Of a DNA stretch of 59,548 nt, positions 24,727-42,910 are shown one piece after another. The notes under the pieces are model-generated. The model did no database searches. It was not told where the DNA came from and was given only the letters and a program-made list of their open reading frames with translations. Numbering within the stretch: position 1 is the stretch's first letter; every line of letters begins with the position of its first letter. Position numbers and translations under genes: made by a program. This stretch comes from a virus (lineage: Duplodnaviria > Caudoviricetes). The stretch lies in the IMG/VR virus record IMGVR_UViG_3300009108_000011, positions 1-59,548 of that record, one strand, 5' to 3'.

Positions 24727-25128
24727 TTAAGAAACGACTTTTTGAACTTCAGCCACATTTACGAAGGTAATAATAGATTTGCCAGAGTTTAAACCAGAAG
24801 ATTTCAACTGTTCACCAGATTTGAAAATTGCGTCAAAGTCGCCTTTCTCGCTGTCTGTCATTGAATGGTTTTTACCTTCTTTGGTTTTGAAAGAATAGCC
24901 CGTAATTTCCCAAGCAATTAAACCGTAATCTTCGCAAAAGTTACGAAGTTGTTCGTTTTGCTCCTCAATCAGTGCTTCTCTTTCTTTCTCTGTCATTTCT
25001 GTTTTAACCTCTGTTTGTGGTTCGTTCTGTGACATTTTGGCTAAAAGCTCGAATATTCTAGAGTTAGTTTGCTCTAGGGCTGTCAAGCGTTTTTCCAAAG
25101 TCTCTTTAGTTTTTGTTGTGCGTGCCAT
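24727..25128 (-). CDS. Hypothetical protein (MARTTKTKE.., 133 aa)
   Basis: TATA-like box ~25 nt upstream of ATG 25128; coiled-coil N-terminus. Confidence 0.65.
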   Translation of the reverse strand: MARTTKTKETLEKRLTALEQTNSRIFELLAKMSQNEPQTEVKTEMTEKEREALIEEQNEQLRNFCEDYGLIAWEITGYSFKTKEGKNHSMTDSEKGDFDAIFKSGEQLKSSGLNSGKSIITFVNVAEVQKVVS

Positions 25129-25229
25129 GTTCTTACTTATTTTATGTATAATACCTATATATACAAAGACCAACGATTCATACGGTGAAAGGTAGGAAAC
25201 TAAATCCTCTCAGAGAACGCCAAAAACCC

Positions 25230-25660
25230 ACGCCATATATATCCCTATATATCTGTACACCGAATATTTATTTATATATGTATATATGTACACCATATAT
25301 ATTTATATATATATGTATATATTATATATATATATACGAGGCACGGCTGGGCTCATATATATTATATATATATATATTATATTATATGTATATATATTTC
25401 ATATATAATATATTTACTTAGTGCCTACGGCACGCTGGCTCTACTGCTTATGTGTATAGTATTGGTATAGTATGAGACTTGTAGTCACAAACTCGTTGCG
25501 AAAGGTATATATAGGTATGGCGCTGCTGGATATGGTATATCTGATAGGTTCGATAGGCATAGCCTATATACAATTATTGATTCTATTGTACCTATTGTGT
25601 ATAGTATTGTTAGTTATAGGGTTATTGTTAATTATTATTATTAATTATTATTACAAGTAT
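25230..25660. repeat. Extremely AT-rich (TA)n low-complexity non-coding region with short repeats; candidate origin or genome terminus
   Basis: TATATA tracts; GGCACG(G)CTGG x2; TGTGTATAGTATTG x2; located at the strand switch. Confidence 0.55.
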
Positions 25661-25803
25661 GGTTCATGTTCCCACGACTAACACCCTTTTCACCTGATTA
25701 TTTGTTGGTAAAGATTTATAAATCTACTCTTCCTTATATTGACTAATGACTTGTTCACAAGTTCTAAGCCTTTTCGGCAAAGTCCACACAACTACGGTAT
25801 GCT

Positions 25804-26445
25804 ATGCATATGCATATGGGAGATGTTCCTATGATATCTAGGAAGAAGAGTGTAAGGTACGTAAGCCTATCATTCGAGAAGCCTAATCCTAAGAACATGG
25901 CTAGCGACCTTGATGATACAATACGTAATGTTCGTGCCAGACGTAAGGGTATCATCTATAGGAGAGCACAAGCAGAAGCCCGTAAGCTTATGGGTATACC
26001 CGACTTGCATACCAAGAAGTTTGTACGTAAGCATAGAAGACAAGTAAGAAGTATACTATCTATTGTTGATGGTGTCGCTGACTATATCTATGAGTCTGCT
26101 TATGATATAAATGGTTCATGGGCATATGGTAATGAAGCAAGGATGAAAGAGATAAACGATAAGATTAAAAGTGCTAATCAATATCGTAGTCAAAATCCTC
26201 TATTGCTTATGCTTATCCCTGAACTAAGAGAGATTGATATAGAGCAACTTAACTCTATAGTATCTTTCTTTTTGGTAGATAAGGATGGTCGTTTAATAGG
26301 CAACACAACTCACTCTGAACCTAGTATGGTATACAACAAGAAAGAGTTATCTAAACTATGGGTATCTCCTCACTTGGTTAATGGTATACCATATGTATTA
26401 GGTTGTAAGAAGTGTGGATTAGATATGGAGGGTCGTCTGGTATGA
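25804..26445 (+). CDS. Hypothetical basic protein with C-terminal H..CxxC
   Basis: First gene of the plus-strand block; start uncertain. Confidence 0.6.
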   Translation: MHMHMGDVPMISRKKSVRYVSLSFEKPNPKNMASDLDDTIRNVRARRKGIIYRRAQAEARKLMGIPDLHTKKFVRKHRRQVRSILSIVDGVADYIYESAYDINGSWAYGNEARMKEINDKIKSANQYRSQNPLLLMLIPELREIDIEQLNSIVSFFLVDKDGRLIGNTTHSEPSMVYNKKELSKLWVSPHLVNGIPYVLGCKKCGLDMEGRLV

Positions 26446-26463
26446 CTCCCATACCTTTCCTTT

Positions 26464-26600
26464 TTATTATGCATATCACCATAGTAGGTATGATAAACCT
26501 AATGGAAATGATGCAGCATAAGCTACGTCTACATGGTACAGAAGTACCACGCCTTATGGGCAGGAACGGTGATGTCATGTCGTAGGTAGATGTATAATAA
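26464..26600 (+). ncRNA. Candidate structured RNA/leader with alternative pairings
   Basis: Several nested complementary segments found by eye. Confidence 0.35.
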
Positions 26601-26618
26601 TAGAAGAGGTTAAGTAAA

Positions 26619-27080
26619 ATGACCGAAACATTTGACGAAGTAAATAAGACCTGCAAGGTTAGTCTTAACAGTTCTTATGTATACTCATTCGTTAGACCAC
26701 AAGCAGAGATAGAACGTAAAGAGCCTGTCACTATTGATGTAAGAAATATTAACGCACAGTTAATAGTAAATAATGATAGTGCTGGAACTTCAATAGATAA
26801 TATCACTACGAACTTTACAACTAGACCAGTTACCTTTGAGTGTAATGATTGTAACTGTGAAGTTGAACAATCAGTAACATTCAATGAGGCTATAGATATA
26901 ATAGAATCAGGTGGCTCATGTGAATGTTGTACTAGTGGTGAGCATGATATAGATATTGAAGAGATTAGGAGTGAAGCACATGAATTTAGTACATGTTCAG
27001 ATGAAATGTATGGTACAGTAAAATGTAAACGCTGTCATGAAGACGTAGATGTATCACTAAGAATGGAGGTACAAAGTTAA
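26619..27080 (+). CDS. Cys-rich zinc-binding protein
   Basis: CNDC, CECC, CSD, CKRC; GAGGT SD. Confidence 0.65.
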   Translation: MTETFDEVNKTCKVSLNSSYVYSFVRPQAEIERKEPVTIDVRNINAQLIVNNDSAGTSIDNITTNFTTRPVTFECNDCNCEVEQSVTFNEAIDIIESGGSCECCTSGEHDIDIEEIRSEAHEFSTCSDEMYGTVKCKRCHEDVDVSLRMEVQS

Positions 27081-28162
27081 TGAGATATAAAAACTCACGT
27101 AGTACTGAACCAACTGGTGTTACTAGTAAACTAGGAAATGGTGAAGATAACGAACACATTGTTAAAGCTTGTGATATTGCAGAAAACCTTGCAATTAATA
27201 CAACAGCAACCAATGACGATGTAACATATGCACCCGTTGACTATGAGAATGCATTCATTCCATATAGAATAGGTAAGTATGAAGATGTTATGGGATTAAA
27301 GCATGAGTTATACAACCATGCTATGACCAGTGACCAACCTATACTTTTGATAGGTGATAAAGGTTCAGGTAAAACTATGACTGTTCATGACTTGGCTCGT
27401 GATTTATATGATGATGGTGTACTTGGTGGTATGATATCCATGCAAGGTAACTTCAACACAAGTGATAAACATATGATATCTTATAATAGATTGAAGGGTT
27501 TATCTGGTGAGACTGTTAAAGGCTTTGGTATTAATGTAGTATGCTTAGGCAATCACTTTAGTGAGGGTAAGTATGCTAACAATCCAAAGTTAGTCATAGC
27601 ATATGTTGATGAACTTCCTAACATGCCAACAGAAACTAGTATTATACTCGCATCATTATTAGATGGTAGACGTATGATACAGACACAAGATGGTCATACA
27701 TGGAGACTCAATGATAATGCTAGAGTAATATTCATTGCAAGTGGAAACCCTAGTCATTATGCTGGTGTAAATACATTGCAAGAAGCATTGATGTCTAGAT
27801 TCACTGGATATTATATTGGTTATCCAAGTGACGATAGTATCTGTAAGATGATTGACTTTGATAAGTATGGTGTGCCTGAAGATGTGGTTAATCCATTGCT
27901 TACATTGTGTAGTGACATACATAGTATGAAACAGAAACAGGATGTTGATTATGTTATCAGCCCTCGTGACCTATCATACTTTGCACAAGAGTATAGTAAT
28001 AGGATGAATAAGTATGAACCTAAAGAGACAGCCGAACAAGCATTGGCTGGTGCTTTAGAGAAAACTATACTTATTAACTATCAAGACTTGCAAGAGAGAC
28101 AGTTAGTTAAGACATCTATCGAAGAGACCTTTGGCATATCTATGCAGACCAAGTACTCTTAG
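27080..28162 (+). CDS. MoxR/CobS-like AAA+ ATPase
   Basis: Walker A GDKGSGKT, Walker B IAYVDE, ASGNP..YAG..LQEALMSRF, ISPRDL. Confidence 0.85.
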   Translation: MRYKNSRSTEPTGVTSKLGNGEDNEHIVKACDIAENLAINTTATNDDVTYAPVDYENAFIPYRIGKYEDVMGLKHELYNHAMTSDQPILLIGDKGSGKTMTVHDLARDLYDDGVLGGMISMQGNFNTSDKHMISYNRLKGLSGETVKGFGINVVCLGNHFSEGKYANNPKLVIAYVDELPNMPTETSIILASLLDGRRMIQTQDGHTWRLNDNARVIFIASGNPSHYAGVNTLQEALMSRFTGYYIGYPSDDSICKMIDFDKYGVPEDVVNPLLTLCSDIHSMKQKQDVDYVISPRDLSYFAQEYSNRMNKYEPKETAEQALAGALEKTILINYQDLQERQLVKTSIEETFGISMQTKYS

Positions 28163-28164
28163 AC

Positions 28165-28335
28165 ATGCAAGGTAAATTGTCCAGAGTTATGAACGTCACT
28201 ATTGAGACAGCATATATATTCTGTGTTAATTGTGGTGAACAAAACAACATAGGTAATGATAAGTGTCATGTATGTGATAGTGTATTAGTTACAAGCAACG
28301 ATGACTACTGTTGTTTATGTGGTTGTGAACAATGA
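28165..28335 (+). CDS. Zn-ribbon micro-protein; not in ORF track
   Basis: CVNCG..CHVC..CCLCGC. Confidence 0.55.
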   Translation: MQGKLSRVMNVTIETAYIFCVNCGEQNNIGNDKCHVCDSVLVTSNDDYCCLCGCEQ

Positions 28336-28478
28336 AGATAAAGTTATGGTTTTACAACCATCTCTTTTATCCTTTGTATAAGGATTACATTCAAGAGGAA
28401 TGTGATGACTATCTTTCAGAGAATGCTAAAGAATATGCACATGAATATATGTCAGACATGTGGAACGATAGGGATTAG
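28332..28478 (+). CDS. Small hypothetical protein, 48 aa; not in ORF track
   Basis: ATGA overlap; fills the operon gap. Confidence 0.45.
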   Translation: MKIKLWFYNHLFYPLYKDYIQEECDDYLSENAKEYAHEYMSDMWNDRD

Positions 28479-28484
28479 TTAGAG

Positions 28485-30671
28485 ATGCCTTTCAAAAAGA
28501 GTGCAGTTAAACGCACTAAATCTACAGACATATTGTCAGCTAACGAATACAATCGTAAACGTACTGATGTAGTTGAGGAACTAAAGAACAAACGTATCAA
28601 TGTAGCATACAGGAATACTAATAGGAACTATGTTACAGCAGACAGTTATAGTAATGATATCATGCACGTAACATTAGCATCGCCAGCAGTTAAAGGCATA
28701 CCAATACGCACTGCCTTATGGCATGAGTTATCACATGTGTTACATAATTCATTTGCTACTAGTTTCTTTAATGCATCCCATGACTTGGCAAAGAAACAAG
28801 TGGATAGAATACTGGATAAGAATCCAATATTTGCTGAGGTTGATAAAGCATTACGTTCTGTTAGAGATCCATTTACAAATGCTCCAGATAGTTTAGATAA
28901 GTCTCAGTATGTGAATCAACTCATGCAACTATATCGTATGGGTTTTAATGCTATTGAAGACCAACGTATTGAATCATTAACTGGTAGTGTATGGTTAGGC
29001 ACTGGTAAGATGTTCAATAAGATGCGTGACTCATTAGGTGAAAGACTGTTAGAAAACTTGAAGAGTAATGTCAACAGTGAGGATGGTATGGATAACCCAA
29101 TCAATCATTTGTTATTGATAAGATTCAATCAAGCAGGTGCAGTAAGAGCAGACCATAAATTACATAAGGCTATGACTGATGTGGCAGGTAAAGATGAGTT
29201 CGGTTCTATAGTAATATGGAAACGTTATGTTAAACCAGTCATAGATAAATGGTTTACTAAAAGGATAGAGAAACAAGCAGAGAAATATAATGAGTCTTTA
29301 TCTAAAAACATTGAGCAATTAGAACAGACTAAATCTAAAGAAGAGGAGTGTGAAGAAAAGTCCACTGCCCTCGAAAAGATATCAAACTTTGGTCAAGATT
29401 ATGTATACGAAAAGATGAATGACTATGATAAGATGTTAAATAGGATTGGTACTGAAGAGACAAAAACAATACGAGATAAAGAAAACCGATATGATAAATC
29501 CGAGAGAGTTTATCGTAAACTCAATGTGCATAAGTATGATAAACGTGAGGAGCTTGATGAACTGAAGAGAGAAATCAATAGTTCTAGAACTTCAATGTTG
29601 AATGAAGTACATGATATGGGAAAAGAGACCACAAGGGATGGTGTAAATACTTCTGTATCAAAACAAACTGGTATGGATAGAAACCAATGTGATATAGGTG
29701 AGGATGATGAAGATGCATTATCTGAACGTTGTAAGGAAGAAGCCTTAGACCTAGACTCTGAAGATATTGATGAAGATAACATGGATACTATGTTAGCAGA
29801 GTCTGAAGAAGGTGGTACTGGACAAGTTAAAGAGATAAAGAATGGATTGTCTGGTATGGCTATACCTAAAGAACCTTCTAACATACATATTGTTTCTAGA
29901 GTACAGAAAGATAACAACGTTGATTCAACATTAGTTACTGGTCTTAGAACCATAGTTAGTAAGTTGAAGGAACGAAACGTACCAACCTTATCTGATACTG
30001 GTGATGAGTTTGATGAGGATGAATACATTAACCTTAAGCAACGTGGCTATGGTGATGTGTTTAAACAAAACAAACTACAGAATGGTATAGATATACTTGT
30101 GAGTATTGATGGCTCTGGTAGTATGGAATCTAATGAGAATATAGTTGAGGCACGTAAGTTAGTGTCTAGTTTGTTTAAGGTTGCTCAAACTATATCAGAG
30201 TTAACTGTTGAAGCAAACGTATGGTCATCTAATACTGATGGTGATGTTGGTATGACAACAATCAGAACACTAGCAGAGTGTAAGAACATATCAACCAGTG
30301 TTTCAGGTGGTAGATACTATGAGACACCAACACATGAAGCAATGGCATATTCAGCACGCAGGTTAAAAAGAATGCAAGGCAGACATAAGATGTTGATACT
30401 TATCACTGATGGTTATCCACAGTTCAGTAAGGGTGGCGTTCATATGTCAAACAAAGCAATAGTAACTGCATGCAAGAAGAATCTTCGTAAAGTTTTACAG
30501 GTAACAGACAATGTTATATGTATTAACGTTGAGCCTCGTGGTTATACAACTTGTGAGATGCTTAAGGATATCTTTGGTAAAAGATATGTTGAGTATGAGG
30601 GTGTGAAGAAAGCAAATGAATTCGTATCTAAAACATTGAAGCGTAAGTTCATTGAGGTATTAAGGAGATGA
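28485..30671 (+). CDS. VWA-domain protein (CobT-like) with N-terminal HEXXH region
   Basis: WHELSH, FNAIEDQRIE, MIDAS DGSGSM, ETPT, LITDGYP. Confidence 0.85.
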   Translation: MPFKKSAVKRTKSTDILSANEYNRKRTDVVEELKNKRINVAYRNTNRNYVTADSYSNDIMHVTLASPAVKGIPIRTALWHELSHVLHNSFATSFFNASHDLAKKQVDRILDKNPIFAEVDKALRSVRDPFTNAPDSLDKSQYVNQLMQLYRMGFNAIEDQRIESLTGSVWLGTGKMFNKMRDSLGERLLENLKSNVNSEDGMDNPINHLLLIRFNQAGAVRADHKLHKAMTDVAGKDEFGSIVIWKRYVKPVIDKWFTKRIEKQAEKYNESLSKNIEQLEQTKSKEEECEEKSTALEKISNFGQDYVYEKMNDYDKMLNRIGTEETKTIRDKENRYDKSERVYRKLNVHKYDKREELDELKREINSSRTSMLNEVHDMGKETTRDGVNTSVSKQTGMDRNQCDIGEDDEDALSERCKEEALDLDSEDIDEDNMDTMLAESEEGGTGQVKEIKNGLSGMAIPKEPSNIHIVSRVQKDNNVDSTLVTGLRTIVSKLKERNVPTLSDTGDEFDEDEYINLKQRGYGDVFKQNKLQNGIDILVSIDGSGSMESNENIVEARKLVSSLFKVAQTISELTVEANVWSSNTDGDVGMTTIRTLAECKNISTSVSGGRYYETPTHEAMAYSARRLKRMQGRHKMLILITDGYPQFSKGGVHMSNKAIVTACKKNLRKVLQVTDNVICINVEPRGYTTCEMLKDIFGKRYVEYEGVKKANEFVSKTLKRKFIEVLRR

Positions 30672-30988
30672 CTGATGAATTTAAACTTGATAAAGAAGCA
30701 ATGGATATGACAAGAATGCTTAACATTGAAGAGGTTAAGGTTATCACTCATCTATGGAAAATGTTAGATGTTAAGGGTGTGCCAATAGATGATATACCTG
30801 AAGATCTTATCCATATGGATGCAGTAAAGTATCTAATGAACCAGCTATGTAATGCAGGAAAGAAGTATAACCTCAGTCGTGCTGAGATGGTAATCGCTGT
30901 TAGATGTGCATTGTTTGATGTCCTATGGAATTATACATTGGTTGATACTGAAGTAGCCAAACAAAAATTCCAACATGATAACAAATAG
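30668..30988 (+). CDS. Hypothetical protein
   Basis: ATGA-coupled ORF. Confidence 0.6.
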   Translation: MTDEFKLDKEAMDMTRMLNIEEVKVITHLWKMLDVKGVPIDDIPEDLIHMDAVKYLMNQLCNAGKKYNLSRAEMVIAVRCALFDVLWNYTLVDTEVAKQKFQHDNK

Positions 30989-30990
30989 AT

Positions 30991-31245
30991 ATGAAACGTA
31001 AACCTGATTACTGTGTATGGTATTGCAAGTGCAGAAAAAGTACAGGCAAACCTATCGCAGTATTCACACCAATAGATAAGAAATTGACATGGCATTCAAC
31101 ATTACCTAAGAAGATAACAAATTCATTAATTAGTGTGGAAATGTCATTCAATAATTCTATACCTATAGCTAAGAAGTCTGGTGCTACAACCATACTTAAC
31201 ATATGGTGTTTTACCAACACCTGTCTGTGCAGTGACTGTGACTAG
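30991..31245 (+). CDS. Cys-rich hypothetical protein
   Basis: Co-oriented ORF with terminal Cys clusters. Confidence 0.5.
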   Translation: MKRKPDYCVWYCKCRKSTGKPIAVFTPIDKKLTWHSTLPKKITNSLISVEMSFNNSIPIAKKSGATTILNIWCFTNTCLCSDCD

Positions 31246-31260
31246 CAGTTGTACACCATA

Positions 31261-31821
31261 ATGAATGAAGTAACTAGAGAATCTCCATATGTATACAGTA
31301 TGATTTCTCGTAGTGATTCAACTACACGCCATATAATAATACATGAGCCAACTGATGATAGACTTGTGTGTGACTGTAAAGGCTTTACATATAAAAGCAA
31401 CTGTTATCATATACGTGATGTACGAGAATTTATATCTATAAACCCACATGTGAATACAATGATAAGAGAAAAACCAAAAGAAGCAAAACATATCAAAGAA
31501 TTAAAAGATAAACCTGATGGTGAATACAGAGACCCATATGACCAACCCGTATTGGTAGAGACAGACAAACTTGATGGTACAATAAAGAGATTATATGCTA
31601 TGAGCCTTGACCCAGCAGTAGAAGGGCTATGGATTCCTCGTATTGAACTATCAATACAAGAACGCAGGCGTATAATTAAAGGCATACTTGATATGGAAAA
31701 GAATGTATGGATTATCAATCAGCGAAAGAAGGCTGTTGATATTGAATGGCTGTCTGATTCTGACCTGTTCAGATACTATAAGATGATGAACGAGTTAGTA
31801 GGCAATGACGTTACAGCGTAA
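31261..31821 (+). CDS. SWIM zinc-finger protein
   Basis: VCDCKGFTYKSNCYHI (CxC..CxH); ATG at 31261 preferred over TTG at 31249. Confidence 0.75.
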   Translation: MNEVTRESPYVYSMISRSDSTTRHIIIHEPTDDRLVCDCKGFTYKSNCYHIRDVREFISINPHVNTMIREKPKEAKHIKELKDKPDGEYRDPYDQPVLVETDKLDGTIKRLYAMSLDPAVEGLWIPRIELSIQERRRIIKGILDMEKNVWIINQRKKAVDIEWLSDSDLFRYYKMMNELVGNDVTA

Positions 31822-31893
31822 CTTGCTATTTCTTATAGCAATACCATTTGTTATATTCTTTGGTAAAAGAATACTAGGTATGGTGAAGAAACA

Positions 31894-32508
31894 ATGATGG
31901 AACATGGCTTCTATGGGTGCACTACCCATAAGCAAGCACTCAAAAGAATTAAAGCACTTGCGAAATATGACATGGTAGAGATACTAGGTGAAGATTTCAA
32001 TACTGATGGCTTTAATGCTCAAAAGGTACAAGACTGGTTACGTGATTACCACCTTAGTAACAGCATGAAATTGATGAACATGTTCTTTGAAAAAACAATT
32101 AAAGAACGCAGAAGAGGGGGTTGGTTAAAAGGTAAACCTGATCTTACACTGAATGGTTTATGGAACGTTGCATATCTTATGAGATGTAAACCATACTGGA
32201 CAGATTTAGTTACAGAACTTATGAAACACTTTGATGTAGAATATCAGGACTATCAAGATGTATGTAAAGGTCTGTCAATGGTTGCATGGTTCATGTCTAA
32301 TGACCATGAAAGAAGCATGGCAAAAGCTCACAAACAATCTGTTATAGAAGGAGAGTACCATGGATATATTACATACATGGCATTATCATGTGCATGTGAA
32401 ATATTAGGTACAAAGAGAACCAACAAACGTGCAGAAGCAAAGCTTAAGAATAACTTAATATATGTTGGGCAGATAACAGAGGAAGTATATCAGGAGATTA
32501 AGAATTGA
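31894..32508 (+). CDS. Hypothetical protein
   Basis: 204-aa ORF, GGTGA SD. Confidence 0.65.
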   Translation: MMEHGFYGCTTHKQALKRIKALAKYDMVEILGEDFNTDGFNAQKVQDWLRDYHLSNSMKLMNMFFEKTIKERRRGGWLKGKPDLTLNGLWNVAYLMRCKPYWTDLVTELMKHFDVEYQDYQDVCKGLSMVAWFMSNDHERSMAKAHKQSVIEGEYHGYITYMALSCACEILGTKRTNKRAEAKLKNNLIYVGQITEEVYQEIKN

Positions 32509-32730
32509 ACGCATTGGATGTATAGATATGAACACTCAAAGAAAATACTGTGTCAAATGTGGGTTGAAACGAACAACTAAGAAGAAACTACATTTCCACT
32601 GTAAGTGTAAACATGGCTGAAGAATATAGTCATCCAACATACATAACAAAGTGTGATGATTGTGGTCATACTGATAACTTCATAGTTATTCACGCACCAC
32701 ATGACTATAAGCATATAGTAAAATGCAAGT

Positions 32731-32937
32731 GTGGAGGATATAAGATTGACCTCTTCTACTGACCCAGCAACAGACCATATGTTATGTATGGCTGTTGACT
32801 GTGAGTCAATCGCTACTAAAAGCGTACTCGCAATAGTTGACGTTGAGGGTAAGGAAGAGAAGCATAAGATAAACTTCTGTCGTGACCACTATCTAAAACA
32901 AATGGCATATCAATATGCAAAGGAAGAAGAGAAATGA
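32731..32937 (+). CDS. Zn-finger micro-protein
   Basis: CMAVDC..FCRDH. Confidence 0.55.
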   Translation: MEDIRLTSSTDPATDHMLCMAVDCESIATKSVLAIVDVEGKEEKHKINFCRDHYLKQMAYQYAKEEEK

Positions 32938-33425
32938 CCACCGAAGAATACGGTGGCTCTTCTCCTGCCTTCCATACAATGACTGATGCATATAATGGTG
33001 CATTAAATAGTAGAACACAGAACATGAAAGTTAGACGAGTGAATAAAACAACACTTGGTATGTTTACTGTAAGTACATTAAGATTACCACGAGACATGGA
33101 TGACTTTCATCACGGAAAAGTATATGAAACTATGATATGGTATAATGAATTTGGTTCTGATAAAGAAATGAATCCGAAATACCATTTCACCGAAAGACCT
33201 GTTGACACATGGATGAACTATCAAGAAAGATGTCGTACATATAGTGAGGCAGTGCAACAACACAAAGATGCTGTTATGTATATAGAACTCTTCGTTAATT
33301 ATGATGAGCCTGATGAGGAGACATGTCAATGTGGTAATAAAAAACCAGAGGGTGATAAACTCTGTTTACATTGTTGGTGTGAAGAACATAATATGTCTTG
33401 TACTTGTGGGTGCGAATCGAAATGA
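32934..33425 (+). CDS. Hypothetical protein with C-terminal Cys cluster
   Basis: VSTL..VYETMIW motif; ends ESK* inside the junction repeat. Confidence 0.65.
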   Translation: MTTEEYGGSSPAFHTMTDAYNGALNSRTQNMKVRRVNKTTLGMFTVSTLRLPRDMDDFHHGKVYETMIWYNEFGSDKEMNPKYHFTERPVDTWMNYQERCRTYSEAVQQHKDAVMYIELFVNYDEPDEETCQCGNKKPEGDKLCLHCWCEEHNMSCTCGCESK

Positions 33426-33730
33426 AAGAAGAATTCACAGAAGAAGATTATGAAATCGAAATGAAATGTGAAATATGTGGAGAACCATCTGGTTGTGGAG
33501 ATTACCATGAAACCTGTCAATGTGCTGAACCTATTAGAGATAAACATTCTAGTGAAACGTGTAAAATATGCGAGAAAACATTATGGGATGATGATCCAAT
33601 TTATGAAGAATGTGAACAATGTAAGAAAATTGTAGAATCTATTAATGATGAAGGTAAATGTGAGGAATGTGAAACACACATTTCAATGGAAGATATAAGG
33701 CAAATAGCTATGAGGAATCGAAATGAATGA
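33422..33730 (+). CDS. Acidic multi-CxxC protein (cassette gene)
   Basis: Starts in the junction repeat; MKEEFTEED N-terminus. Confidence 0.65.
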   Translation: MKEEFTEEDYEIEMKCEICGEPSGCGDYHETCQCAEPIRDKHSSETCKICEKTLWDDDPIYEECEQCKKIVESINDEGKCEECETHISMEDIRQIAMRNRNE

Positions 33731-33875
33731 CTATATTATAGAGCAAATAGATAGTATAATGCAAAAACTATCATTGGTTAGATGTCAAGGTATGAATATT
33801 GGAATCAAAGATGAAGTCAATTTTGATTTAGATAATCTAAGAGATTGGATTATAGGTAGTGAGGAATCGAAATGA
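33723..33875 (+). CDS. Cassette micro-gene, 50 aa (MNDYIIEQ..EESK); not in ORF track
   Basis: Starts and ends in junction repeats. Confidence 0.65.
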   Translation: MNDYIIEQIDSIMQKLSLVRCQGMNIGIKDEVNFDLDNLRDWIIGSEESK

Positions 33876-34051
33876 CTAGATACTATGTAACGGAATACCA
33901 AGATCAGATTACTGATGAGTATGTAGTATTAAATCCACCTGAAGTAATTCATGCAGAACAAGGGTGCGTTCAATGTGCAATAAGTAAATACACTGAATTA
34001 CATCCTGACCGTTGGACATTTCATGGTGCTGTTACGGAGGAATCGAAATGA
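33872..34051 (+). CDS. Cassette micro-gene, 59 aa (MTRYYVTE..EESK); not in ORF track
   Basis: Starts and ends in junction repeats. Confidence 0.65.
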   Translation: MTRYYVTEYQDQITDEYVVLNPPEVIHAEQGCVQCAISKYTELHPDRWTFHGAVTEESK

Positions 34052-34209
34052 AAGAAGAATTCACAGAAGAAGATTGTGAATCTTGCTACAATCTAGGGAA
34101 AAGTTATTGTAATCATGGTCATCAGGTTGGTTGTTGCTGTTCTGAATGTACTGCTGATTGGCGACATGATAACAACCTAGATGAAAATGATGAACCTATG
34201 AAGGATTAA
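34048..34209 (+). CDS. Cys-rich cassette micro-gene, 53 aa
   Basis: MKEEFTEED N-terminus identical to the 33422 gene. Confidence 0.65.
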   Translation: MKEEFTEEDCESCYNLGKSYCNHGHQVGCCCSECTADWRHDNNLDENDEPMKD

Positions 34210-34214
34210 TCGAA

Positions 34215-34715
34215 ATGAGCCGTAAGATATCAGAGGAAGCTTGTCAAGCTTTACTCTTGGGTAAACCATATAAGAAAAGTAACACAGTAGTTGAAAGATT
34301 AGATGTATTTACATGGATAATGAAATTGTTTGGTAATCCTATAGCTCATTGTAGACCTCGGGGTACATTAGGAAGAAATGAAGGACATATAAGTAGTACG
34401 CCTGAATATCTTCAGATATGTGATGGTCGACACCAATCAATGACTACTAAAGAACGTCTTAATGTATTACCTAACGTTAGCATACATCAGGATAACTTTC
34501 AATGGTATATCAATGACTGTAAATGGGAAGATGCAGCATACGATAATAAAAAGTCTAATCCGTATGGATGGATTAATGTCATAGTAGATTATAACTATAT
34601 GAGATTCAAGAAGAATATACCACCCGTAGTAATCACACAGATAAAGTATTCAGCAAAAACATATGAGGAACTACGCAATCAGTATAGATATAAATATGGA
34701 GAAGACAATAAATGA
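34215..34715 (+). CDS. Hypothetical phage protein
   Basis: MSRKI..SNT.V..LFGNPIA..SMTTKERLN pattern, familiar from marine phages. Confidence 0.65.
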   Translation: MSRKISEEACQALLLGKPYKKSNTVVERLDVFTWIMKLFGNPIAHCRPRGTLGRNEGHISSTPEYLQICDGRHQSMTTKERLNVLPNVSIHQDNFQWYINDCKWEDAAYDNKKSNPYGWINVIVDYNYMRFKKNIPPVVITQIKYSAKTYEELRNQYRYKYGEDNK

Positions 34716-35032
34716 ATATGAAACCTAAACCATTGAAGAATTTCTTTGTGCAATATAGAAAAGTAACGAATAAGGGATTTGGTAGAATGCAAAACTCTAA
34801 ATGGTTTGACGAGGCAGGAGCAGATAAATTCGCTATGAAAGTATTCAGAGAGAATAAAGACAGAGCACTCGTTCATATAATACAGGTTGATGAATTCAAT
34901 CCCAGCAGGCAGATAAAGTATAAGTTTGTTGACCTTATGGGAGAAATTCAACTATGGAATGATTTCTATATGCCTGACCAACTAGTAGACGTAAACGTGC
35001 AGAAAGTACAAAGACTAAATACAAACAGGTAG
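34712..35032 (+). CDS. Hypothetical protein
   Basis: Coupled ORF followed by a T-tract terminator. Confidence 0.6.
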   Translation: MNMKPKPLKNFFVQYRKVTNKGFGRMQNSKWFDEAGADKFAMKVFRENKDRALVHIIQVDEFNPSRQIKYKFVDLMGEIQLWNDFYMPDQLVDVNVQKVQRLNTNR

Positions 35033-35162
35033 ACTTATATCTATCATTACCTTTTTTTTATTATGATTTGCCACATTTGTTTAGCTGAAATTAAAGAATC
35101 TAATACATTAGATAAATTAGATTTATGTAAAACTTGTTTTAAAAAAGTTGGTGATATTATTA

Positions 35163-35498
35163 ATGAAAAATCTTAAGTGTATGTATTGTATGGGAAAAGT
35201 ACCCGTAACATATAAAGGAAGACAAAAAAAATTCTGTACTGAAAAATGCCGTTATACATATAAGAAAAAAAATGGTCTCCTTACATATCAAAAGAAAAGA
35301 TTAACCAATCATAAAAAATGTTTTATTTGTAACCGTGTTATATCTAGTGTAGGTCTGAGAAAAAAAATTTTTAAATACTGCTCAAAAAAATGTATGATTA
35401 TAGGAACAAGGCAAAGAGACAGAAACCAGAAGAACGTATATGTAAAGATACCTATTAATATGTATTATAAACTGTTCGAGAATAGACCACCCATATAG
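35163..35498 (+). CDS. Tandem CxxC..CxxxC zinc-finger protein
   Basis: CMYC..FCTEKC and CFIC..YCSKKC; very basic. Confidence 0.65.
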   Translation: MKNLKCMYCMGKVPVTYKGRQKKFCTEKCRYTYKKKNGLLTYQKKRLTNHKKCFICNRVISSVGLRKKIFKYCSKKCMIIGTRQRDRNQKNVYVKIPINMYYKLFENRPPI

Positions 35499-35548
35499 TT
35501 GTACACCAAAAAAATCATAAAAATACTATTTTTTCTAGAAGACGTTAG

Positions 35549-35773
35549 CTATGCTACAGTCAAATGTGCCCAAGCCATATTATATATCAATGCTTCCTCT
35601 TGTGCCTCGTCTATTGTTTCATCAAAATCATCTATGCATTTATGAATAAATTCATGGGTTATGGTAGATAAGATATCGTCTAGGGTCTCATGGTTATTAA
35701 GATATATTAATATCCTGCCTGTTTCTGAGTAATATACTCCCCTCTCATCACAACCTGTAGTTTTTAAGTCCAA
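35549..35773 (-). CDS. Small HEXXH metallopeptidase-like protein
   Basis: GVYY..ILIYL..TITHEFIH..EE. Confidence 0.6.
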   Translation of the reverse strand: MDLKTTGCDERGVYYSETGRILIYLNNHETLDDILSTITHEFIHKCIDDFDETIDEAQEEALIYNMAWAHLTVA

Positions 35774-35818
35774 CCTAATTCTAGTAAAAGTTATAAGATA
35801 AGATAAAGTTTTCGTTTT

Positions 35819-36061
35819 ATGTGGAAGGAATTTTGGTCATGGTATGAGAGGCATACGACTGAGAGCCTATTAATAACAGCCATAATCATATATATACAAA
35901 TTCCCCATATGGTGTGGGCAGGAGATGCAATATTACAAACAGGAGTAGTGTGGGGAGTCAATCCAATTCTTGATTTTTTTCTATATGGTATTGATTTGAT
36001 TGAGATTATACCTATGATAAACCTAGGAATGCTTATTTACTCCAGAATTAGAAGAAAATAG
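35819..36061 (+). CDS. Small membrane protein
   Basis: Two hydrophobic segments. Confidence 0.55.
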   Translation: MWKEFWSWYERHTTESLLITAIIIYIQIPHMVWAGDAILQTGVVWGVNPILDFFLYGIDLIEIIPMINLGMLIYSRIRRK

Positions 36062-36237
36062 TGGAATTAAAAGCATGGTTAATATTATCGGCAGGAGTTA
36101 TAGTGTTTTATGGTGTGGCGATTTTTAGTGGTAATTTTCCAGAAAATAAGGAAGTTATTGAAGAATGTGGACAGTTGGCTATGGCAATGACTAAAATATG
36201 TCCGTAAGTTTATAAGAAAGAAGAAAATATATAAAAT

Positions 36238-36477
36238 ATGGCAGATGAAGATACAAATCACCCAGCACCTAGGTGGGATGTAGTTACTAAGGGATATGAT
36301 AAAGTGGATTCTGTTATTGATGATTTTGTAACCAAGGATAAAATGAATATCTTAGAACTATCTATAATATTTATGATGGTTAATAAGCGTTTAAATCAAC
36401 AAGATATAGGTATGTATATGGAATATGTAAAAGAAGAGGCTGATAAAAATGCACAAGACAGTGGACTCTACAAATGA
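36238..36477 (+). CDS. Hypothetical protein
   Basis: TTTATAAG promoter ~21 nt upstream. Confidence 0.6.
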   Translation: MADEDTNHPAPRWDVVTKGYDKVDSVIDDFVTKDKMNILELSIIFMMVNKRLNQQDIGMYMEYVKEEADKNAQDSGLYK

Positions 36478-36595
36478 TATAAAACTACCTTGGTCTGACC
36501 ACAAGGATGTTAATATTAATATACCGTGTAAATTATGCAGAGAACAAGCAATAAGTGCCAGTGGTTGTAAATATTGTTCTTTATGTTATAAGGAA

Positions 36596-37009
36596 TTACT
36601 TTCTACCGAGATTCTTGGTAAGTGATAGTGCAGATTTTACTTCTTTGACAGATTCTAGATTGTTTAAGTCTTTGAATAGAATTGGACACTCTTGTTCTAG
36701 TAAATCTACAACTATACAGTTATTCCATTCTAATGTACGTTTCTGTATTATATCTCTATATGAAAGACCATATCCGTTATGTCTTTTATCCTGAACCCTT
36801 ACTACAATCTTTCTGTCGTCTTTATATATAACTATATCTAGTGTTTCTTTATCCTGTCTTTCTGTGACCGTATCTTTCCATTCATCTGTTAAAAGATCTT
36901 TGAATGGAACTTGTGTTTTAAATTCTGCACCATTAAATTCTTTTTTAAGTATATCTAATGCTACATCTTCACCTCTTCCTATAAACTGACCCTTCTTATT
37001 CTTATACAA
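36596..37009 (-). CDS. PD-(D/E)XK (Vsr/DUF559-like) endonuclease
   Basis: GE..TQVP..LDIVI..IVVRVQDKRH..RD. Confidence 0.6.
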   Translation of the reverse strand: MYKNKKGQFIGRGEDVALDILKKEFNGAEFKTQVPFKDLLTDEWKDTVTERQDKETLDIVIYKDDRKIVVRVQDKRHNGYGLSYRDIIQKRTLEWNNCIVVDLLEQECPILFKDLNNLESVKEVKSALSLTKNLGRK

Positions 37010-37012: not shown

Positions 37013-37357
37013 TTAAGTACTGTCATATCCCCTTAATAAAACTTCCCACACCTTCTCTTTCTTTTTGACGTTTATTGACATGACTAACAGTGATTTATCT
37101 GACATAAAATCTATGATGTCTTTATTACTAGCCCATGCGTTTGTTTTTATCTGTAGATACACTGCCTCACCATCAGGATTAAAACATATACCATCGAATA
37201 GATTCCACAAGTCTAATGCTCTATACCATTCTCCTCTTGTATAAACTAAATCTTGTCTCCTAACATGTGGTTTTAACCATATTTCATCATACCCATTTTC
37301 TAATAACCATTCAACTGCTTTCCTATTAGAGAATCGCATTCTCTGTCTAGGGTTCAT
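37013..37357 (-). CDS. Holliday junction resolvase-like nuclease (Hjc family)
   Basis: WLLENGY..LFDGIC..YLQIKT. Confidence 0.65.
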   Translation of the reverse strand: MNPRQRMRFSNRKAVEWLLENGYDEIWLKPHVRRQDLVYTRGEWYRALDLWNLFDGICFNPDGEAVYLQIKTNAWASNKDIIDFMSDKSLLVMSINVKKKEKVWEVLLRGYDST

Positions 37358-38376
37358 TCAGGATCTTTTATACCTTCTACACTTAAAACGAATTCTGCAT
37401 CTGCTTGTGGATGTTCAGGAGAGTCAACCATTCTTGCTATTCTTTTCTTACCTGATTTCTTAAAGTATATTCTATATGTTGAGGCATGTCCAACAACGTT
37501 ACCTCCTATAGGTTTAATTGGATCACCAAACATCATTGCAGGATCAGATTGAACCTGATTAGTAAACACAACTGTGTTTCTGAAATAATATGATATGTTT
37601 TTGAGATGTGTCATTAATCTAGCTAACTGCATTTGCCTCTCAGCTAGTGTACCTCTACCTAAATATTCTTCTCTAAACTGTCCTATTGCACCATCTAATA
37701 TTAATAAAGGTGGTGCTTTATCCATAAGTATATTTGATAAGTTATTAATAGTACCCATTAATTGTTCTGTGTTAGGACAATAGAAATAAAATATCCTGTT
37801 AATATATTCCATTGCTTGCTCTTTATCTTCAACATATCCTCTAGCCATAAGTATCTCTACTATTCTTCTAGGTTTGAACGTGTCTTCACAATCAATCCAT
37901 ATAACATTATGCCCATCATGTATTGTTTCCACTGTAAGACTATTACAAAATTGTGTCTTACCTGATCCAAATTCTCCATATACTTCATATGTTGCTTCAG
38001 GTTTTATACCACCACCTAATAAATCATCTACGCCTTTAGCTTTAGTTTCTATTGCTGGTAGATTCTCTTGGTATTCCATTAATTCTGCTGTTGACATATC
38101 AGACTTCCTAATGAAACCTTTATCTTCTAAAATCTTTTGGCAACCAAATACCCAACTATCTGCCTTGTGTTTGTCTACTCCTGCTATCTCAGATACTTCT
38201 TTAGCACCTCTTACACATATATCTATAATTGATGTTAAACCAAACGCTTCTAGTTTCTTTTTAGTAACAGCTCCAACACCCTCTAATTGATCTACACTAT
38301 AATCCAGTGTTTCTTCTTCAATTTCTGTCTCTCTGACATCTTCTAAATCCACATTATCTTCTTTGTTTCTCGCCAT
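37354..38376 (-). CDS. radA: Archaeal RadA recombinase
   Basis: N-terminal HhH, GEFGSGKTQ, YLGRGTLAERQ, TNQV, GGNVVGHASTYR. Confidence 0.95.
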   Translation of the reverse strand: MARNKEDNVDLEDVRETEIEEETLDYSVDQLEGVGAVTKKKLEAFGLTSIIDICVRGAKEVSEIAGVDKHKADSWVFGCQKILEDKGFIRKSDMSTAELMEYQENLPAIETKAKGVDDLLGGGIKPEATYEVYGEFGSGKTQFCNSLTVETIHDGHNVIWIDCEDTFKPRRIVEILMARGYVEDKEQAMEYINRIFYFYCPNTEQLMGTINNLSNILMDKAPPLLILDGAIGQFREEYLGRGTLAERQMQLARLMTHLKNISYYFRNTVVFTNQVQSDPAMMFGDPIKPIGGNVVGHASTYRIYFKKSGKKRIARMVDSPEHPQADAEFVLSVEGIKDPE

Positions 38377-40964: not shown

Positions 40965-41228
40965 CTATTTTATTCTTTTAAATATAACAACTCTGGATAT
41001 CTTACCATTTATATTTATATTACCCATCTCCGAAGAGAAATACCCTCCCTTTTCTAACTCCCTAAGATAACCCAAACTTCTTCTTGAGTGTAGTTTTAAA
41101 ACCTTTGTTACTAGGGTTGCTGTTGTTGTTTTATTCTTTGGAATCATCTCTAAAATCTTTTCCTTTGCTGTCATAGTCCTAAATATAACATCGTTATCTT
41201 CGAGTGTTATTGAGTATTTTTTCTTCAT
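40965..41228 (-). CDS. Winged-helix DNA-binding protein
   Basis: KEKILEMI..TATLVTKVL..YLRELEKGG plus beta wing. Confidence 0.6.
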   Translation of the reverse strand: MKKKYSITLEDNDVIFRTMTAKEKILEMIPKNKTTTATLVTKVLKLHSRRSLGYLRELEKGGYFSSEMGNININGKISRVVIFKRIK

Positions 41229-42061
41229 TAGAAGTGTCTCACCAAAGGTTTAATTTCCAAGTCTGCAATATGTTTCTTAACAATTATATCTTCATTAGGT
41301 TCAATAATAAACTCAACACAACCAATATCAGGAGTAGTACCTGCAACACCACCTCTAAATAGATGTGCATCAGGGAACTTCCAACTTGGTGTAGAAACAC
41401 CATGAGTGTGTGGAAATTCTACATGTACAAAATAATGAACGTGACTTCTGACTATGACATCTGATTTATGTAATTTACTTGCTTCAAAATGCATACCTGC
41501 TAACTCTCTTGCTATGGCAGTTGTTCTATATGCAGCCCATTTATTAAAACCTACATGGTGTGTAAAGTTAAACATCTTATCATGTATCTTAACAAATGCA
41601 TAGTAATCTGTAAGTCCACTACCACCATATGCTTTGTAACCTGTTGCACCCATACGTTTTGCTAATACTTCTTCATAGTTAGTAGCACCTACTTGAACGT
41701 GATAACCTGAACCTCTTACGAACATAAGGTTCTTTGTTGGTATCATCTTTATCAATTTAGCAGAGTCTTCCATCTGATCTTGAATATCAGTTGACCATGA
41801 TTGTTGTCCTAACTGTCTAGGATTAGCACCATCCATAGGCTCACCATTAATTACTAACAAGTCAGCTTTCTTAGATAATGAATCTATACTATCAGTCCAA
41901 GCTTCATATAAAACCCTCTGTAATTTATTAGGTTTGTATGAACCACCACTCTCACCTATTGTAGGTTCTGGTGAACAGACAGATGTAAAAGATCCGTCAT
42001 GTATATCTGAATAAACCACTATTGATTTTGAAGAACCTTTTCTTCCAGACAGTTTTACCAT
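41228..42061 (-). CDS. Calcineurin-like metallophosphoesterase
   Basis: SDIH, NGEPMDG, GSGYH, THH, SHVH motifs. Confidence 0.75.
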   Translation of the reverse strand: MVKLSGRKGSSKSIVVYSDIHDGSFTSVCSPEPTIGESGGSYKPNKLQRVLYEAWTDSIDSLSKKADLLVINGEPMDGANPRQLGQQSWSTDIQDQMEDSAKLIKMIPTKNLMFVRGSGYHVQVGATNYEEVLAKRMGATGYKAYGGSGLTDYYAFVKIHDKMFNFTHHVGFNKWAAYRTTAIARELAGMHFEASKLHKSDVIVRSHVHYFVHVEFPHTHGVSTPSWKFPDAHLFRGGVAGTTPDIGCVEFIIEPNEDIIVKKHIADLEIKPLVRHF

Positions 42062-42066
42062 GTTTG

Positions 42067-42369
42067 TCAATCATTATCACCCTTTATAACTGTTTGTTGA
42101 GTTGTATTCTCTTCAACCGTACTTCTTAATTTTTTTTTCAACGCCTTCCAATGTTCTTGTTTTCTTTTTGTTGATTTATAATCATCAGGGAGATGATGTA
42201 TACATGGTTCGGCTAACGTATATTCACCACAAACATCACACACTTGTATTATTTTAGCCATTTTTTTCTTTGCTTTTTTCCACCAAGGAGAGTGCCAACC
42301 ATAGTCAATAAAATTACTAGGTTTTTTTATCTTCCACTTACCGTTACTCTGTCTTTCCCAATCGATCAT
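42067..42369 (-). CDS. Hypothetical Zn-binding protein
   Basis: CDVCG..CIHH; start uncertain. Confidence 0.5.
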   Translation of the reverse strand: MIDWERQSNGKWKIKKPSNFIDYGWHSPWWKKAKKKMAKIIQVCDVCGEYTLAEPCIHHLPDDYKSTKRKQEHWKALKKKLRSTVEENTTQQTVIKGDND

Positions 42370-42910
42370 CGTTTCTTCCGTTAGTCAAGTCAGATATATC
42401 AACCCCAATATATTTCAGTTTTCTTCTAAATCTTGATGGAACTTCATACTGTTTTATACTACCTTCTGCTAATCTATCATGTATCTCAGACGAAAAGAAC
42501 TTACGTTGGTCTCCTGCCTTACCGTAGAAATCATCATATCTTTGGTTGGTTAATTTATCAGGGTAATACACTTGAAGTATCATATGTGCCAACTCATGAC
42601 ATATCACAGTCATGTTTTGTAAGAAGATTAATGGGTTTGTACTATCAGTTATGTAACATAACACATCTCCCTTTCCCGTAACACCATGAGGTATATCATA
42701 ATCTAATCTATCATTAGGTACGCCACTATAAAACATTCTATCAAATTCTTTTGTTGAAGCTATGGTTATTTTCCAGTGGTCTTGTGCTACTATTCTACTA
42801 TAATCCTTAAAATAATAATGTCTATAAATATAATCTAAAATACATTTCTCATATAGTTTTTCATCTATCTTATCAGTCTCAAACTGTATTATCATATTAG
42901 TCAGAAGCAT
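42344..42910 (-). CDS. HEXXH-containing protein
   Basis: VICHELAH. Confidence 0.55.
   Translation of the reverse strand: MLLTNMIIQFETDKIDEKLYEKCILDYIYRHYYFKDYSRIVAQDHWKITIASTKEFDRMFYSGVPNDRLDYDIPHGVTGKGDVLCYITDSTNPLIFLQNMTVICHELAHMILQVYYPDKLTNQRYDDFYGKAGDQRKFFSSEIHDRLAEGSIKQYEVPSRFRRKLKYIGVDISDLTNGRNDDRLGKTE

Follow-up and report, generated by a model that had tools for sequence, protein, structure and literature searches.

Integrons carry co-oriented, promoterless and mostly small genes together with IntI and attC sites, whose imperfect inverted repeats, tens of bases long, form hairpins. For lambdoid phages, the modular theory proposed that short shared boundary or linker sequences guide homologous exchange between co-infecting phages. 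A PeSL-like motif occurs in the archaeal head-tail virus HGTV-1, for which Sencilo et al. 2013 is reportedly the original source. In the passage of PMC3950731 that deals with it, this motif precedes most open reading frames (ORFs) on one side of the genome, combines a TATA-box-like region with an inverted repeat, acts on transcription and is suggested to serve both regulation and shuffling. The PeSLs of T4-type phages mediate 'modular shuffling' (Arbiol et al. 2010, PMC2839356; Comeau et al. 2014, PMC4122927) and, in the sections of PMC2839356 that we draw on, are intergenic elements of about 100 bp with a sigma-70 promoter and a stem-loop terminator. Here we analyse a 16-nucleotide (nt) junction that bounds a row of small genes in the virus record IMGVR_UViG_3300009108_000011 of IMG/VR (Duplodnaviria; Caudoviricetes), the whole of which, 59,548 nt, is referred to as the window. 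The process at this locus is PeSL-type shuffling, but the element differs in every defining feature save the Shine-Dalgarno (SD) sequence and the start codon. We consider it likely, with a probability of roughly 0.7, that the junction is both a translational-coupling joint and a portable stretch of short homology for cassette exchange.

The 10-nt core of the element, AATCGAAATG, occurs at positions 33415, 33454, 33716, 33865, 34041 and 34208, with all six copies on the plus strand, and nowhere else on either strand of the window. In 100 dinucleotide-preserving shuffles the core appeared 0.07 times on average and at most once, and the reversed control pattern had 0 matches in the virus genome compared with 6 forward and 0 reverse matches of the core. 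Since the window is the whole virus record, rated 95% complete by CheckV, six is the genome-wide count, and the junction 11-mer is the most repeated non-trivial 11-mer in the genome. Five copies provide the ATG of consecutive genes coding for 102, 50, 59, 53 and 166 amino acids (aa). Three copies also contain the TGA of the upstream gene, the 163-aa gene ending in CESK* and the 50-aa and 59-aa genes in EESK*, and GAGG stands directly before the copies at 33716, 33865 and 34041. The copy at 33454 is read in frame within the 102-aa ORF (E-I-E-M), whereas the last copy is placed behind a TAA (34207-34209) without an ATGA overlap. Positions 33414-33449 and 34040-34075 are identical over exactly 36 nt and no further. 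A first-pass annotation made from the sequence by itself had listed six copies within about 800 nt and none elsewhere, five of them gene starts and three of them upstream stops with ESK* ends, GAGG before three copies, and an exact 36-bp gene start common to two genes; the exact count on both strands, the ORF coordinates and the sequence confirmed every one of these details. In full, the element measures 16 nt, (G)GAGGAATCGAAATGA, and consists of an SD sequence, a spacer of invariably 7 nt and an overlap of stop and start as ATGA.

Near-identical genomes differ in their cassettes, as do genomes within one sample, homology ends exactly at the junction, and the joints are scarless. A pattern of two junction copies 143-173 nt apart was found in 2 viral contigs and in at least 117 stretches of metagenome contigs; among the metagenome matches listed, most were marine, had a GC content of 31-39% and held arrays of up to 13 copies in 5 kb (13 in L323, 8 in L221, and 7 each in L209, L268 and L313), while the rest were unrelated repeats or conserved genes of other organisms. 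Proteins in common with the window were present in 23 of 64 selected contigs, the window itself being excluded. When the 65 selected contigs were compared by BLASTN (at least 90% identity over at least 100 nt), 128 of the 231 unique internal ends of high-scoring segment pairs (HSPs) fell between -12 and +22 of the core start, a zone that comprises 2.9% of positions, and left ends peaked at -5/-4 and right ends at +10/+11. An HSP end lay within 15 nt of 68 of 163 exact-junction gene starts, in comparison with 43 of 491 other gene starts in the same contigs. Fifty-five cassette families were present in at least two contigs, and for 27 of them the gene directly adjoining on one side was not always the same, with two or more alternatives.

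Single pairs of genomes illustrate these joints. Window positions 33454-33729 correspond to positions 3594-3868 of L301 with 99.3% identity over 276 nt and with unrelated sequence on both flanks; the match runs from the first base of the junction core to the next junction, and the L301 copy of the cassette has a canonical junction with GGGGAGG at its start. L291 is 99.97% identical over 3.3 kb to G001, a 61-kb virus genome that is 98% complete and has three junction copies, but is without exactly the 143-nt cassette between junctions 2 and 3. To the right of one junction L209 and L221 share 99.8% identity over 2.6 kb, but to its left they are unrelated, and a 458-nt cassette that is 98.3% identical in L221 and L323 has different neighbours in the two. 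The array of G001 lies directly behind a homologue of the window's 68-aa gene (32731-32937) and contains three small genes without relationship to the window genes, and the array of L176, with three copies, again holds different genes. If the junction served shuffling, relatives were expected to carry variable gene content behind the same conserved junction with breakpoints exactly at the motif. The former was found in G001, L176 and the cassette families, the latter in the HSP ends, the gene-start counts and the pairs window/L301, L291/G001, L209/L221 and L221/L323, and neither a fixed gene order with a degenerate motif nor breakpoints unrelated to the motif were seen.

The same boundaries appear in natural populations. 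Twenty public sequencing runs contained part of 32700-35100, and the contigs of four runs from four studies (X1, X4, X7 and X10) were aligned to 31000-37000. The word size of the Logan contigs of these runs is presumably k=31, and because the 16-nt repeat is shorter than this, branches at the junction point to real alternative neighbours and not to repeat collapse. In run X1, contigs break at every junction copy, and depth was about 14 in the flanks, 22.8 over the cassette at 33454-33724 and only 3-6 over the three cassettes at 33723-34209 (5.6, 3.2 and 4.0 for the contigs of the 50-aa, 59-aa and 53-aa genes, respectively). One X1 contig joins 33864 directly to 34208, which skips 343 nt (33865-34207) and thereby the 59-aa and 53-aa genes; the 11 letters that fit either side of this joint are the junction. 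Junction-skipping sequence of this kind had been named in advance as a sign of shuffling. Of the 24 loose-end rows shown for the four runs, 16 coincide with junction copies, at 33454, 33709-33730 (33709, 33711, 33716 and 33730, around copy 3), 33876-33878 (copy 4, in all four runs), 34032-34036 (34032 and 34036, copy 5) and 34200-34208 (34200 and 34208, copy 6). Loose ends before 33454 were present in three of the four runs (X4, X7 and X10), and pieces over the cassette behind it begin at 33454 in X1, X4 and X10. Several loose ends continue as other micro-gene starts or end in GAGG, as in run X10, where the sequence before copy 6 ends in GAGGAGG, and the 33454-33724 cassette was found in all four runs with other flanks. 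Stretches of X7 and X10 that had no contig cover were left out of the evidence.

The cassettes themselves bear on whether such an array could arise locally. There were 258 junction-started ORFs (at most one mismatch) with a median length of 60 aa, of which 129 have EESK and 21 EESE tails. They fell into at least 179 families (BLASTP, 1e-5), 124 of them singletons, and paralogues inside one array are rare. At least two CxxC motifs are present in 59 of 224 unique cassette proteins, by which about a quarter of the micro-proteins look zinc-ribbon-like. Substitutions within families were distributed 216/188/299 over codon positions 1/2/3, a modest third-position excess that characterizes the cassettes as apparently coding, fast-evolving and weakly constrained. 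Alternatively, one small gene and its start might have been duplicated locally in tandem and then diverged, or assembly might have produced chimeras, the repeats being relics and the shuffling an artefact in that case; the exact 36-bp start common to two window genes and the many Cys-rich cassettes would suit this explanation, and BLASTP is insensitive for proteins of about 50 aa. We regard it as very improbable in view of the many singleton families, the rarity of paralogues within arrays, the lack of residual similarity in the junction flanks, the coding-type evolution of the cassettes, and the occurrence of the same boundaries in independent assemblies from four studies, in which a 16-nt repeat below the presumed contig word size cannot by itself cause branches or chimeras.

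These properties define how the array relates to the systems described before. It is not an integron, and the likeness is one of analogy only: small co-oriented genes of unknown function are each bounded by a recurring site, and their content varies with breakpoints at that site. Unlike an integron, the virus genome has neither IntI nor any recombinase of the tyrosine or serine type; attC is also missing, the site being 16 nt long, asymmetric, unstructured and part of both coding regions, and the carrier is a lytic-type virus genome and not a chromosome or plasmid platform. The linkers of lambdoid phages are sporadic and heterogeneous, whereas here one exact 16-mer recurs up to 13 times in 5 kb and in many genomes, and evidence for exchange comes from the population level. 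Likeness to PeSLs, taken from the sections of the PeSL papers used here, extends to repeats that border small ORFan genes within a hyperplastic early region (PMC2839356), to an element that brings its own expression signal, as PeSLs too end in an SD sequence and a start codon (PMC2839356), to indels and replacements between close relatives that are bounded by the repeats (here G001/L291, L209/L221, L221/L323 and window/L301), and to homologous recombination between repeats as the proposed mechanism. The junction differs from PeSLs in that it has 16 nt, no promoter, no hairpin and no intergenic space, overlaps two coding regions, would act on translation and probably belongs to viruses of archaea. 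Mini-circles of PeSLs have been shown physically, according to the same sections; the junction was examined here in contigs. The window virus resembles HGTV-1 in probably being an archaeal head-tail virus, and HGTV-1 is the best match of its large terminase (TerL) in the phage collection (31% identity); the transcriptional element described in the HGTV-1 passage (PMC3950731) has no counterpart in the window but has one in G009, a relative discussed below. The first-pass annotation had seen here a candidate for an undescribed diversification system. What is new is the element, a 16-nt translational joint; the process was known from PeSL shuffling (PMC2839356) and from HGTV-1 (PMC3950731), as far as the portions of these papers used here go. 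No description of the junction was found in the literature on marine thaumarchaeal viruses and on boundary-sequence recombination, nor in the papers listed as containing the motif string, none of which deals with viruses to judge by its title, a scope outside of which the primary papers on marine thaumarchaeal viruses and their supplements lie. The PeSL idea, developed for transcription signals of about 100 bp in bacteria and for pairs of isolates, is extended by the junction to a 16-nt translational joint, to archaea and to natural populations.

The junction consensus was derived from 196 unique contexts in 61 low-GC contigs (268 kb), with the core serving as the search key and so being constant by construction. 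Conservation is confined to -5 to +10 around the core, (G)GAGG AATCGAA ATG A, and the flanks carry no information; beyond the ascertained core, the G/GAGG positions reach 75-96% and the A at +10 reaches 99%. On the array strand of the 61 contigs there are 259 unique GAGG-N7-ATG sites, of which 171 have the spacer AATCGAA and 25 have AATCGGA, with no further spacer above 5, compared with a total of 4 GAGG-N7-ATG sites on the opposite strand. Thirteen of the 61 contigs contain a mixture of the two spacer forms. In the frame of the upstream gene, the junction encodes Glu-Glu-Ser-Lys-stop. TCG makes up 24 of 1147 Ser codons (2.1%) in window ORFs of at least 150 aa and yet is used in 175 of 181 E-S-[K/E]-stop tails. 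The fixation of this rare codon in the tails, together with the 102-aa gene crossing a junction in another frame, indicates a constraint on the nucleotides and not on the peptide, and an EESK C-terminal peptide tag as the selected feature was rejected on this codon evidence. At six more ATGA overlaps of this operon (22797, 26442, 28332, 30668, 32934 and 34712) the sequences upstream are unrelated, and five Nitrosopumilaceae genomes (about 7.9 Mb) contain 19 dispersed copies of the 10-mer compared with 10 of the reversed control, about chance level; therefore neither coupling as such nor a habit of the host explains the exact sequence.

As an initiation site, the junction is well formed. Its GGAGG stands 7 nt before the ATG and is complementary to the CCUCC of the Nitrosopumilaceae 16S rRNA 3' end (...GGAUCACCUCCU), and the UCGA of the spacer can add four pairs with the UCGG directly before this CCUCC, giving a duplex of -10.9 compared with -9.3 kcal/mol for the SD sequence alone. 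The stop/start overlap is present in three of the six window copies. No stable RNA fold was found in 70-nt windows around the six copies in comparison with shuffles (z from -0.85 to +0.94), and no symmetry or hairpin in the 16-nt element, as judged from the 196-junction alignment and the folding of the six copies. Nor does the element include a promoter: its conserved 16 nt are the SD sequence, spacer and ATGA, on either side it is flanked by the coding sequence of adjacent genes, the cassettes all share one strand, and the overlapping stop and start leave no room for one. T4 RegA and RegB act on early initiation regions. Along such lines the junction could be only a translation or regulation signal, optimised for coupling or serving as the operator of a viral repressor or RNase, while cassette turnover would result from illegitimate recombination and selection. 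Pairing with a host-type CCUCC and the four additional spacer pairs agree with this, as do the 7-nt spacing and the unstructured context; the same 15-mer with ...EESK* ends is found two to three times in unrelated higher-GC viral contigs, so the sequence could simply work well, and among other GAGG-N7-ATG sites, too, about 3.5% are twinned within their locus. The pairing gain is small, however, and the six other ATGA overlaps of the operon, four complete relatives and the host genomes all do without the motif. Illegitimate recombination should moreover give varied joints, whereas the joints seen are scarless with an intact 16-mer. A signal by itself would account for the constancy of the sequence but not for the regular homology ends at -5/+10, and we think it unlikely that this is the whole explanation. 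As for the AATCGAA spacer in particular, a frozen accident with a frequency-dependent advantage and an RNA-operator role are both possible and are not mutually exclusive.

The preferred reading, a coupling joint that doubles as portable homology, would work on two levels. With an SD sequence 7 nt before the next ATG and a TGA/ATG overlap, translation of each micro-gene would be coupled to that of the preceding one, as the anatomy suggests. At the DNA level, the same 16 nt at both ends of a cassette would form a portable stretch of identity, and recombination, annealing or template switching between copies could delete, insert or swap whole genes without a scar, keeping frame, stop, SD sequence and start intact. 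The exchange is probably ordinary short-homology recombination, without a dedicated site-specific enzyme. The spacer may be kept because a common 'currency' lets cassettes and arrays go on exchanging, and a role in translation or regulation possibly reinforces it. We infer exchange via the 16-nt identity from the breakpoints described above. RecA-family proteins test homology in steps of about 8 nt. In the first-pass annotation, the motif had been pictured as a plug-in expression and recombination junction for shuffling small genes, like an integron without an integrase; the breakpoints and the skipping contig support the plug-in part, and the integron comparison survives as an analogy.

A number of points weigh against the reading of the junction as portable homology. 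Sixteen nucleotides are short for efficient homologous recombination, and the joints of phage mosaics favour gene boundaries anyway, which a junction is. Recombination within the junction and a requirement that viable recombinants keep the junction predict nearly the same pattern, and the constancy of the spacer would equally follow from the site of a regulatory protein or RNase. The gene-start comparison is confounded by region, the junction starts lying in a hypervariable region and the others including conserved modules, and overlapping contigs are non-independent in the HSP-end, neighbour and gene-start counts. As the contigs were picked for holding two junction copies, from among the metagenome matches listed, their frequencies are not population estimates. 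The skipping joint is one 200-nt contig with 30 letters on its shorter side, and run X1 may be the sample of the window assembly itself. In the virus group the junction is dispensable, as four complete RadA-bearing relatives are without a copy, and junction-positive viruses are scattered on a quick RadA tree with an unresolved backbone, on which descent and spread are indistinguishable.

A dedicated enzyme was sought in the virus genome. There was no match to the tyrosine recombinase family PF00589 in the whole genome, with controls matched in 14 of 14 genomes, and none to the serine recombinase family PF00239, which agrees with the absence of an integrase proposed in the first-pass annotation. 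The Cas4-like nuclease that it had named, beside the viral RadA, as a possible driver is probably the PD-(D/E)XK nuclease at 52352-53116 (minus strand), whose domain at 52388-52834 matches PF12705 (PDDEXK_1; 24.5 bits, E 5.5e-7); the Cas4 model PF01930 gave no match to this protein. A 280-aa protein encoded at 41228-42070 (minus strand) has no Pfam or PHROG family above threshold and no match by sequence among solved structures. Its structural model has a calcineurin-like metallophosphoesterase fold (predicted template-modelling score 0.82) and is matched in Foldseek by LpxH, the PolD-DP1 exonuclease and Mre11 (E 3e-6, template-modelling score 0.45-0.53); a first model, built from 3 sequences, had been discarded because of a predicted local distance difference test score of 35. 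PF00149 is present on 2 of the 120 listed homologues of this protein. The gene at 41228-42070 and a 79-aa ORF at 42897-43136 are found in 3 of 3 junction-positive complete genomes and in 0 of 4 junction-free ones (tblastn, E 1e-4) and are the only real genes with that distribution, and the former also occurs in the fragment G002, which has an exact junction copy and a second one that is off by one base. This co-occurrence is a lead, without phylogenetic control.

On this evidence, the junction could be the recognition site of a dedicated and still unrecognised virus nuclease or recombinase, that is, a true site-specific cassette system of a kind other than tyrosine or serine. Its exact sequence is kept across lineages in which RadA differs by about 25-35%, the two genes just described track it in three compared with four complete genomes, the metallophosphoesterase-fold protein resembles the PolD-DP1 and Mre11 nucleases, and a PD-(D/E)XK nuclease and RadA are also encoded. 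Against this, the comparison involves only three and four genomes without control for phylogeny, the metallophosphoesterase family comprises 283 clusters in the protein database, which may or may not go with the junction, the fold alone is no proof of a nuclease, since LpxH and GpdQ score equally, and the motif is without the symmetry or hairpin usual for site-specific systems. Short homology, moreover, suffices for everything observed, and a dedicated enzyme appears quite unlikely to us. A more specific proposal, in which the 16-mer would be the target of, for example, the metallophosphoesterase-fold protein or the PD-(D/E)XK nuclease and the enzyme would nick or pair at AATCGAAATG and so drive cassette excision, possibly as circles, and insertion, is likewise a long shot; if true, it would amount to integron-like site-specific gene capture in archaeal viruses, with a new kind of enzyme and a site inside coding sequence.

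Under the reading of the junction as a joint and a portable homology, genes would circulate as single-gene cassettes that keep their stop, ribosome site and start wherever they are inserted. The viruses that infect marine ammonia-oxidising archaea have not been cultured, and nearly all of their early genes are ORFans, which the junction offers a sequence handle to find. Two questions become testable, namely what minimum homology organises viral gene flow, and whether it is function or the exchange as such that maintains the constancy of a signal of this type. In its layout, the junction also represents a natural standard for scarless, translation-coupled gene assembly.

The distribution of the junction was followed in several collections. 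A 15-mer search of viral contigs returned at least 118 stretches, and among the 118 matches listed, 2 (L051 and L079, which belong to G001 and G002) are kin of the window. Single-copy 15-mer matches in viral contigs were mostly at chance level by a rough estimate from the presumed collection size, and they were not used. Protein searches of viral contigs yielded no relatives of the 166-aa gene and only G001 for the 68-aa gene. Of 205 viral contigs with RadA relatives, 80 (775 kb) were examined, and the exact 10-mer was present in two, L176 and L182, the latter being identical to G002; the four complete RadA-bearing relatives, G008 to G011, have no junction copy. Other junction 'currencies' in the junction-free relatives were considered, and only coding repeats and one promoter-like repeat were found. 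This repeat is in G009 (loci L410-L412), where 8 copies of TTTGATTAATT, each beside a TATATA-like box, are spaced by 0.4-1 kb over positions 19962-30694 of the record. It lies in a region of small genes and is a promoter-like element of the PeSL or HGTV-1 kind; lineages may differ in their boundary elements.

Outside the low-GC group, the same 15-mer with an ATGA overlap and ...ESK* tails occurs two to three times in unrelated viral and metagenome contigs of 45-63% GC, namely L023, L025/L039/L095, L035/L066/L102, L072, L077/L016, L226, L236 and L262. Twins of other GAGG-N7-ATG words were found at 4 loci in 1.08 Mb. By this rate, the higher-GC repeats were tentatively judged compatible with local start-site duplication and were dropped as candidates for a universal signal. 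The metagenome contig L298 (GC 0.46) contains six copies of GGAGGAATCGAAATGA within 260 nt (202-466), 21-114 nt apart, with ORFs of only 3-45 codons in between (MTGGGIEM..., MTRGGAK), a junction array that is nearly devoid of genes and lies outside the low-GC marine group.

In the window, the array is preceded by a conserved gene of 68 or 52 aa (32731 or 32779 to 32937, plus strand, as are all genes of the array) and by a 163-aa gene (32934-33425) that ends CESK* in copy 1. The start of the 163-aa gene lies within a degenerate junction, GAAGAAGAGAAATGA, behind the 52/68-aa gene. This joint (32920-32937, ...KEEEK*) resembles a decayed motif copy, and in G001, where a 68-aa homologue stands before the array, the corresponding end is KEESK* within an exact copy. 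Copy 1 (33415-33425) is AATCGAAATGA without GGAGG, being preceded by GGTGCG, and contains the TGA of the 163-aa gene and the ATG at 33422. There the 102-aa gene (33422-33730) begins, which encodes a Cys-rich micro-protein with a weak match to DUF7129 (18.7 bits, under the cut-off of 30). Its first part is the repeat arm 33414-33449, which represents a 13-codon 5' piece of the 53-aa cassette placed before an older junction. That older junction is copy 2 (33454-33464), a relic read in frame. Because L301 has the canonical start at the corresponding position, the window copy at 33454 is a former junction, and position 33454 is the true 5' boundary of the mobile cassette 33454-33729. The 36-bp repeat is then explained by the 39 nt before 33454 being a fused-on piece of the 5' end of the 53-aa cassette. 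The 102-aa gene has no stop in its own junction but continues through copy 3, in a different frame, until it meets the TGA at 33728-33730.

Copy 3 (33711-33726, TGAGGAATCGAAATGA) provides the ATG at 33723 of the 50-aa gene (33723-33875), which is without a family and overlaps the 59-aa gene (33872-34051) in the ATGA of copy 4 (33860-33875, again TGAGGAATCGAAATGA). The 59-aa gene in turn overlaps the 53-aa gene in the ATGA of copy 5 (34036-34051, GGAGGAATCGAAATGA). The 53-aa gene (34048-34209) is Cys-rich, ends with TAA and has its first 29 nt (34048-34076) in the 36-bp repeat. Copy 6 (34208-34218), AATCGAAATGA behind GGATT, forms the right end of the array in the window genome and provides the ATG at 34215 of the 166-aa gene (34215-34715). 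The product of this last gene has a Kyano_Gp96-like N-terminal domain (PF23790, 6e-11, 42.9 bits, cut-off 27) and a PHROG match, phrog_554; it is the only junction-started gene of the window with a family, as the four inner cassettes gave no Pfam or PHROG family above cut-off. Its homologue in L288 (family F53) is started by a junction too and has a different right neighbour.

The array lies within a block of small rightward genes at about 22.1-36.6 kb, which we call the early block. By PHROG matches, the window also has genes for a portal, a helicase and a large terminase; an archaeal-type RadA is encoded at 37354-38376 (minus strand), and no tRNA genes were found in the window. Beyond the TerL match to the haloarchaeal virus HGTV-1, its closest RadA relatives in the phage collection are those of haloarchaeal tailed viruses (25%), and the closest cellular RadA proteins among species genomes are 41-45% identical and labelled nearly all as Nitrosopumilaceae, Thaumarchaeota or Nitrososphaerota. 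From this RadA kinship and the GC content of 35%, the host is most likely a marine ammonia-oxidising archaeon of the Nitrosopumilales (Thaumarchaeota). Two 44-kb contigs in metagenome-assembled genomes, L326 and L327, encode RadA 70-73% identical to the viral one; one of the bins is labelled Nitrosopelagicus and the other 'uncultured bacterium', and the two are probably viral contigs binned with cells. Elsewhere in the early block, a CobS-like AAA+ ATPase (27080-28162, plus strand, phrog_249) is followed by a 728-aa protein with a VWA domain (28485-30671, plus strand), the two forming the cobS/cobT pair that PMC8651126 describes in tailed viruses of archaea and bacteria. An AT-rich stretch of TATATA-type repeats at 25270-25420, with three copies of ATATGTATATA, lies just upstream of an ORF starting at 25472 and could be a replication-origin or promoter region.

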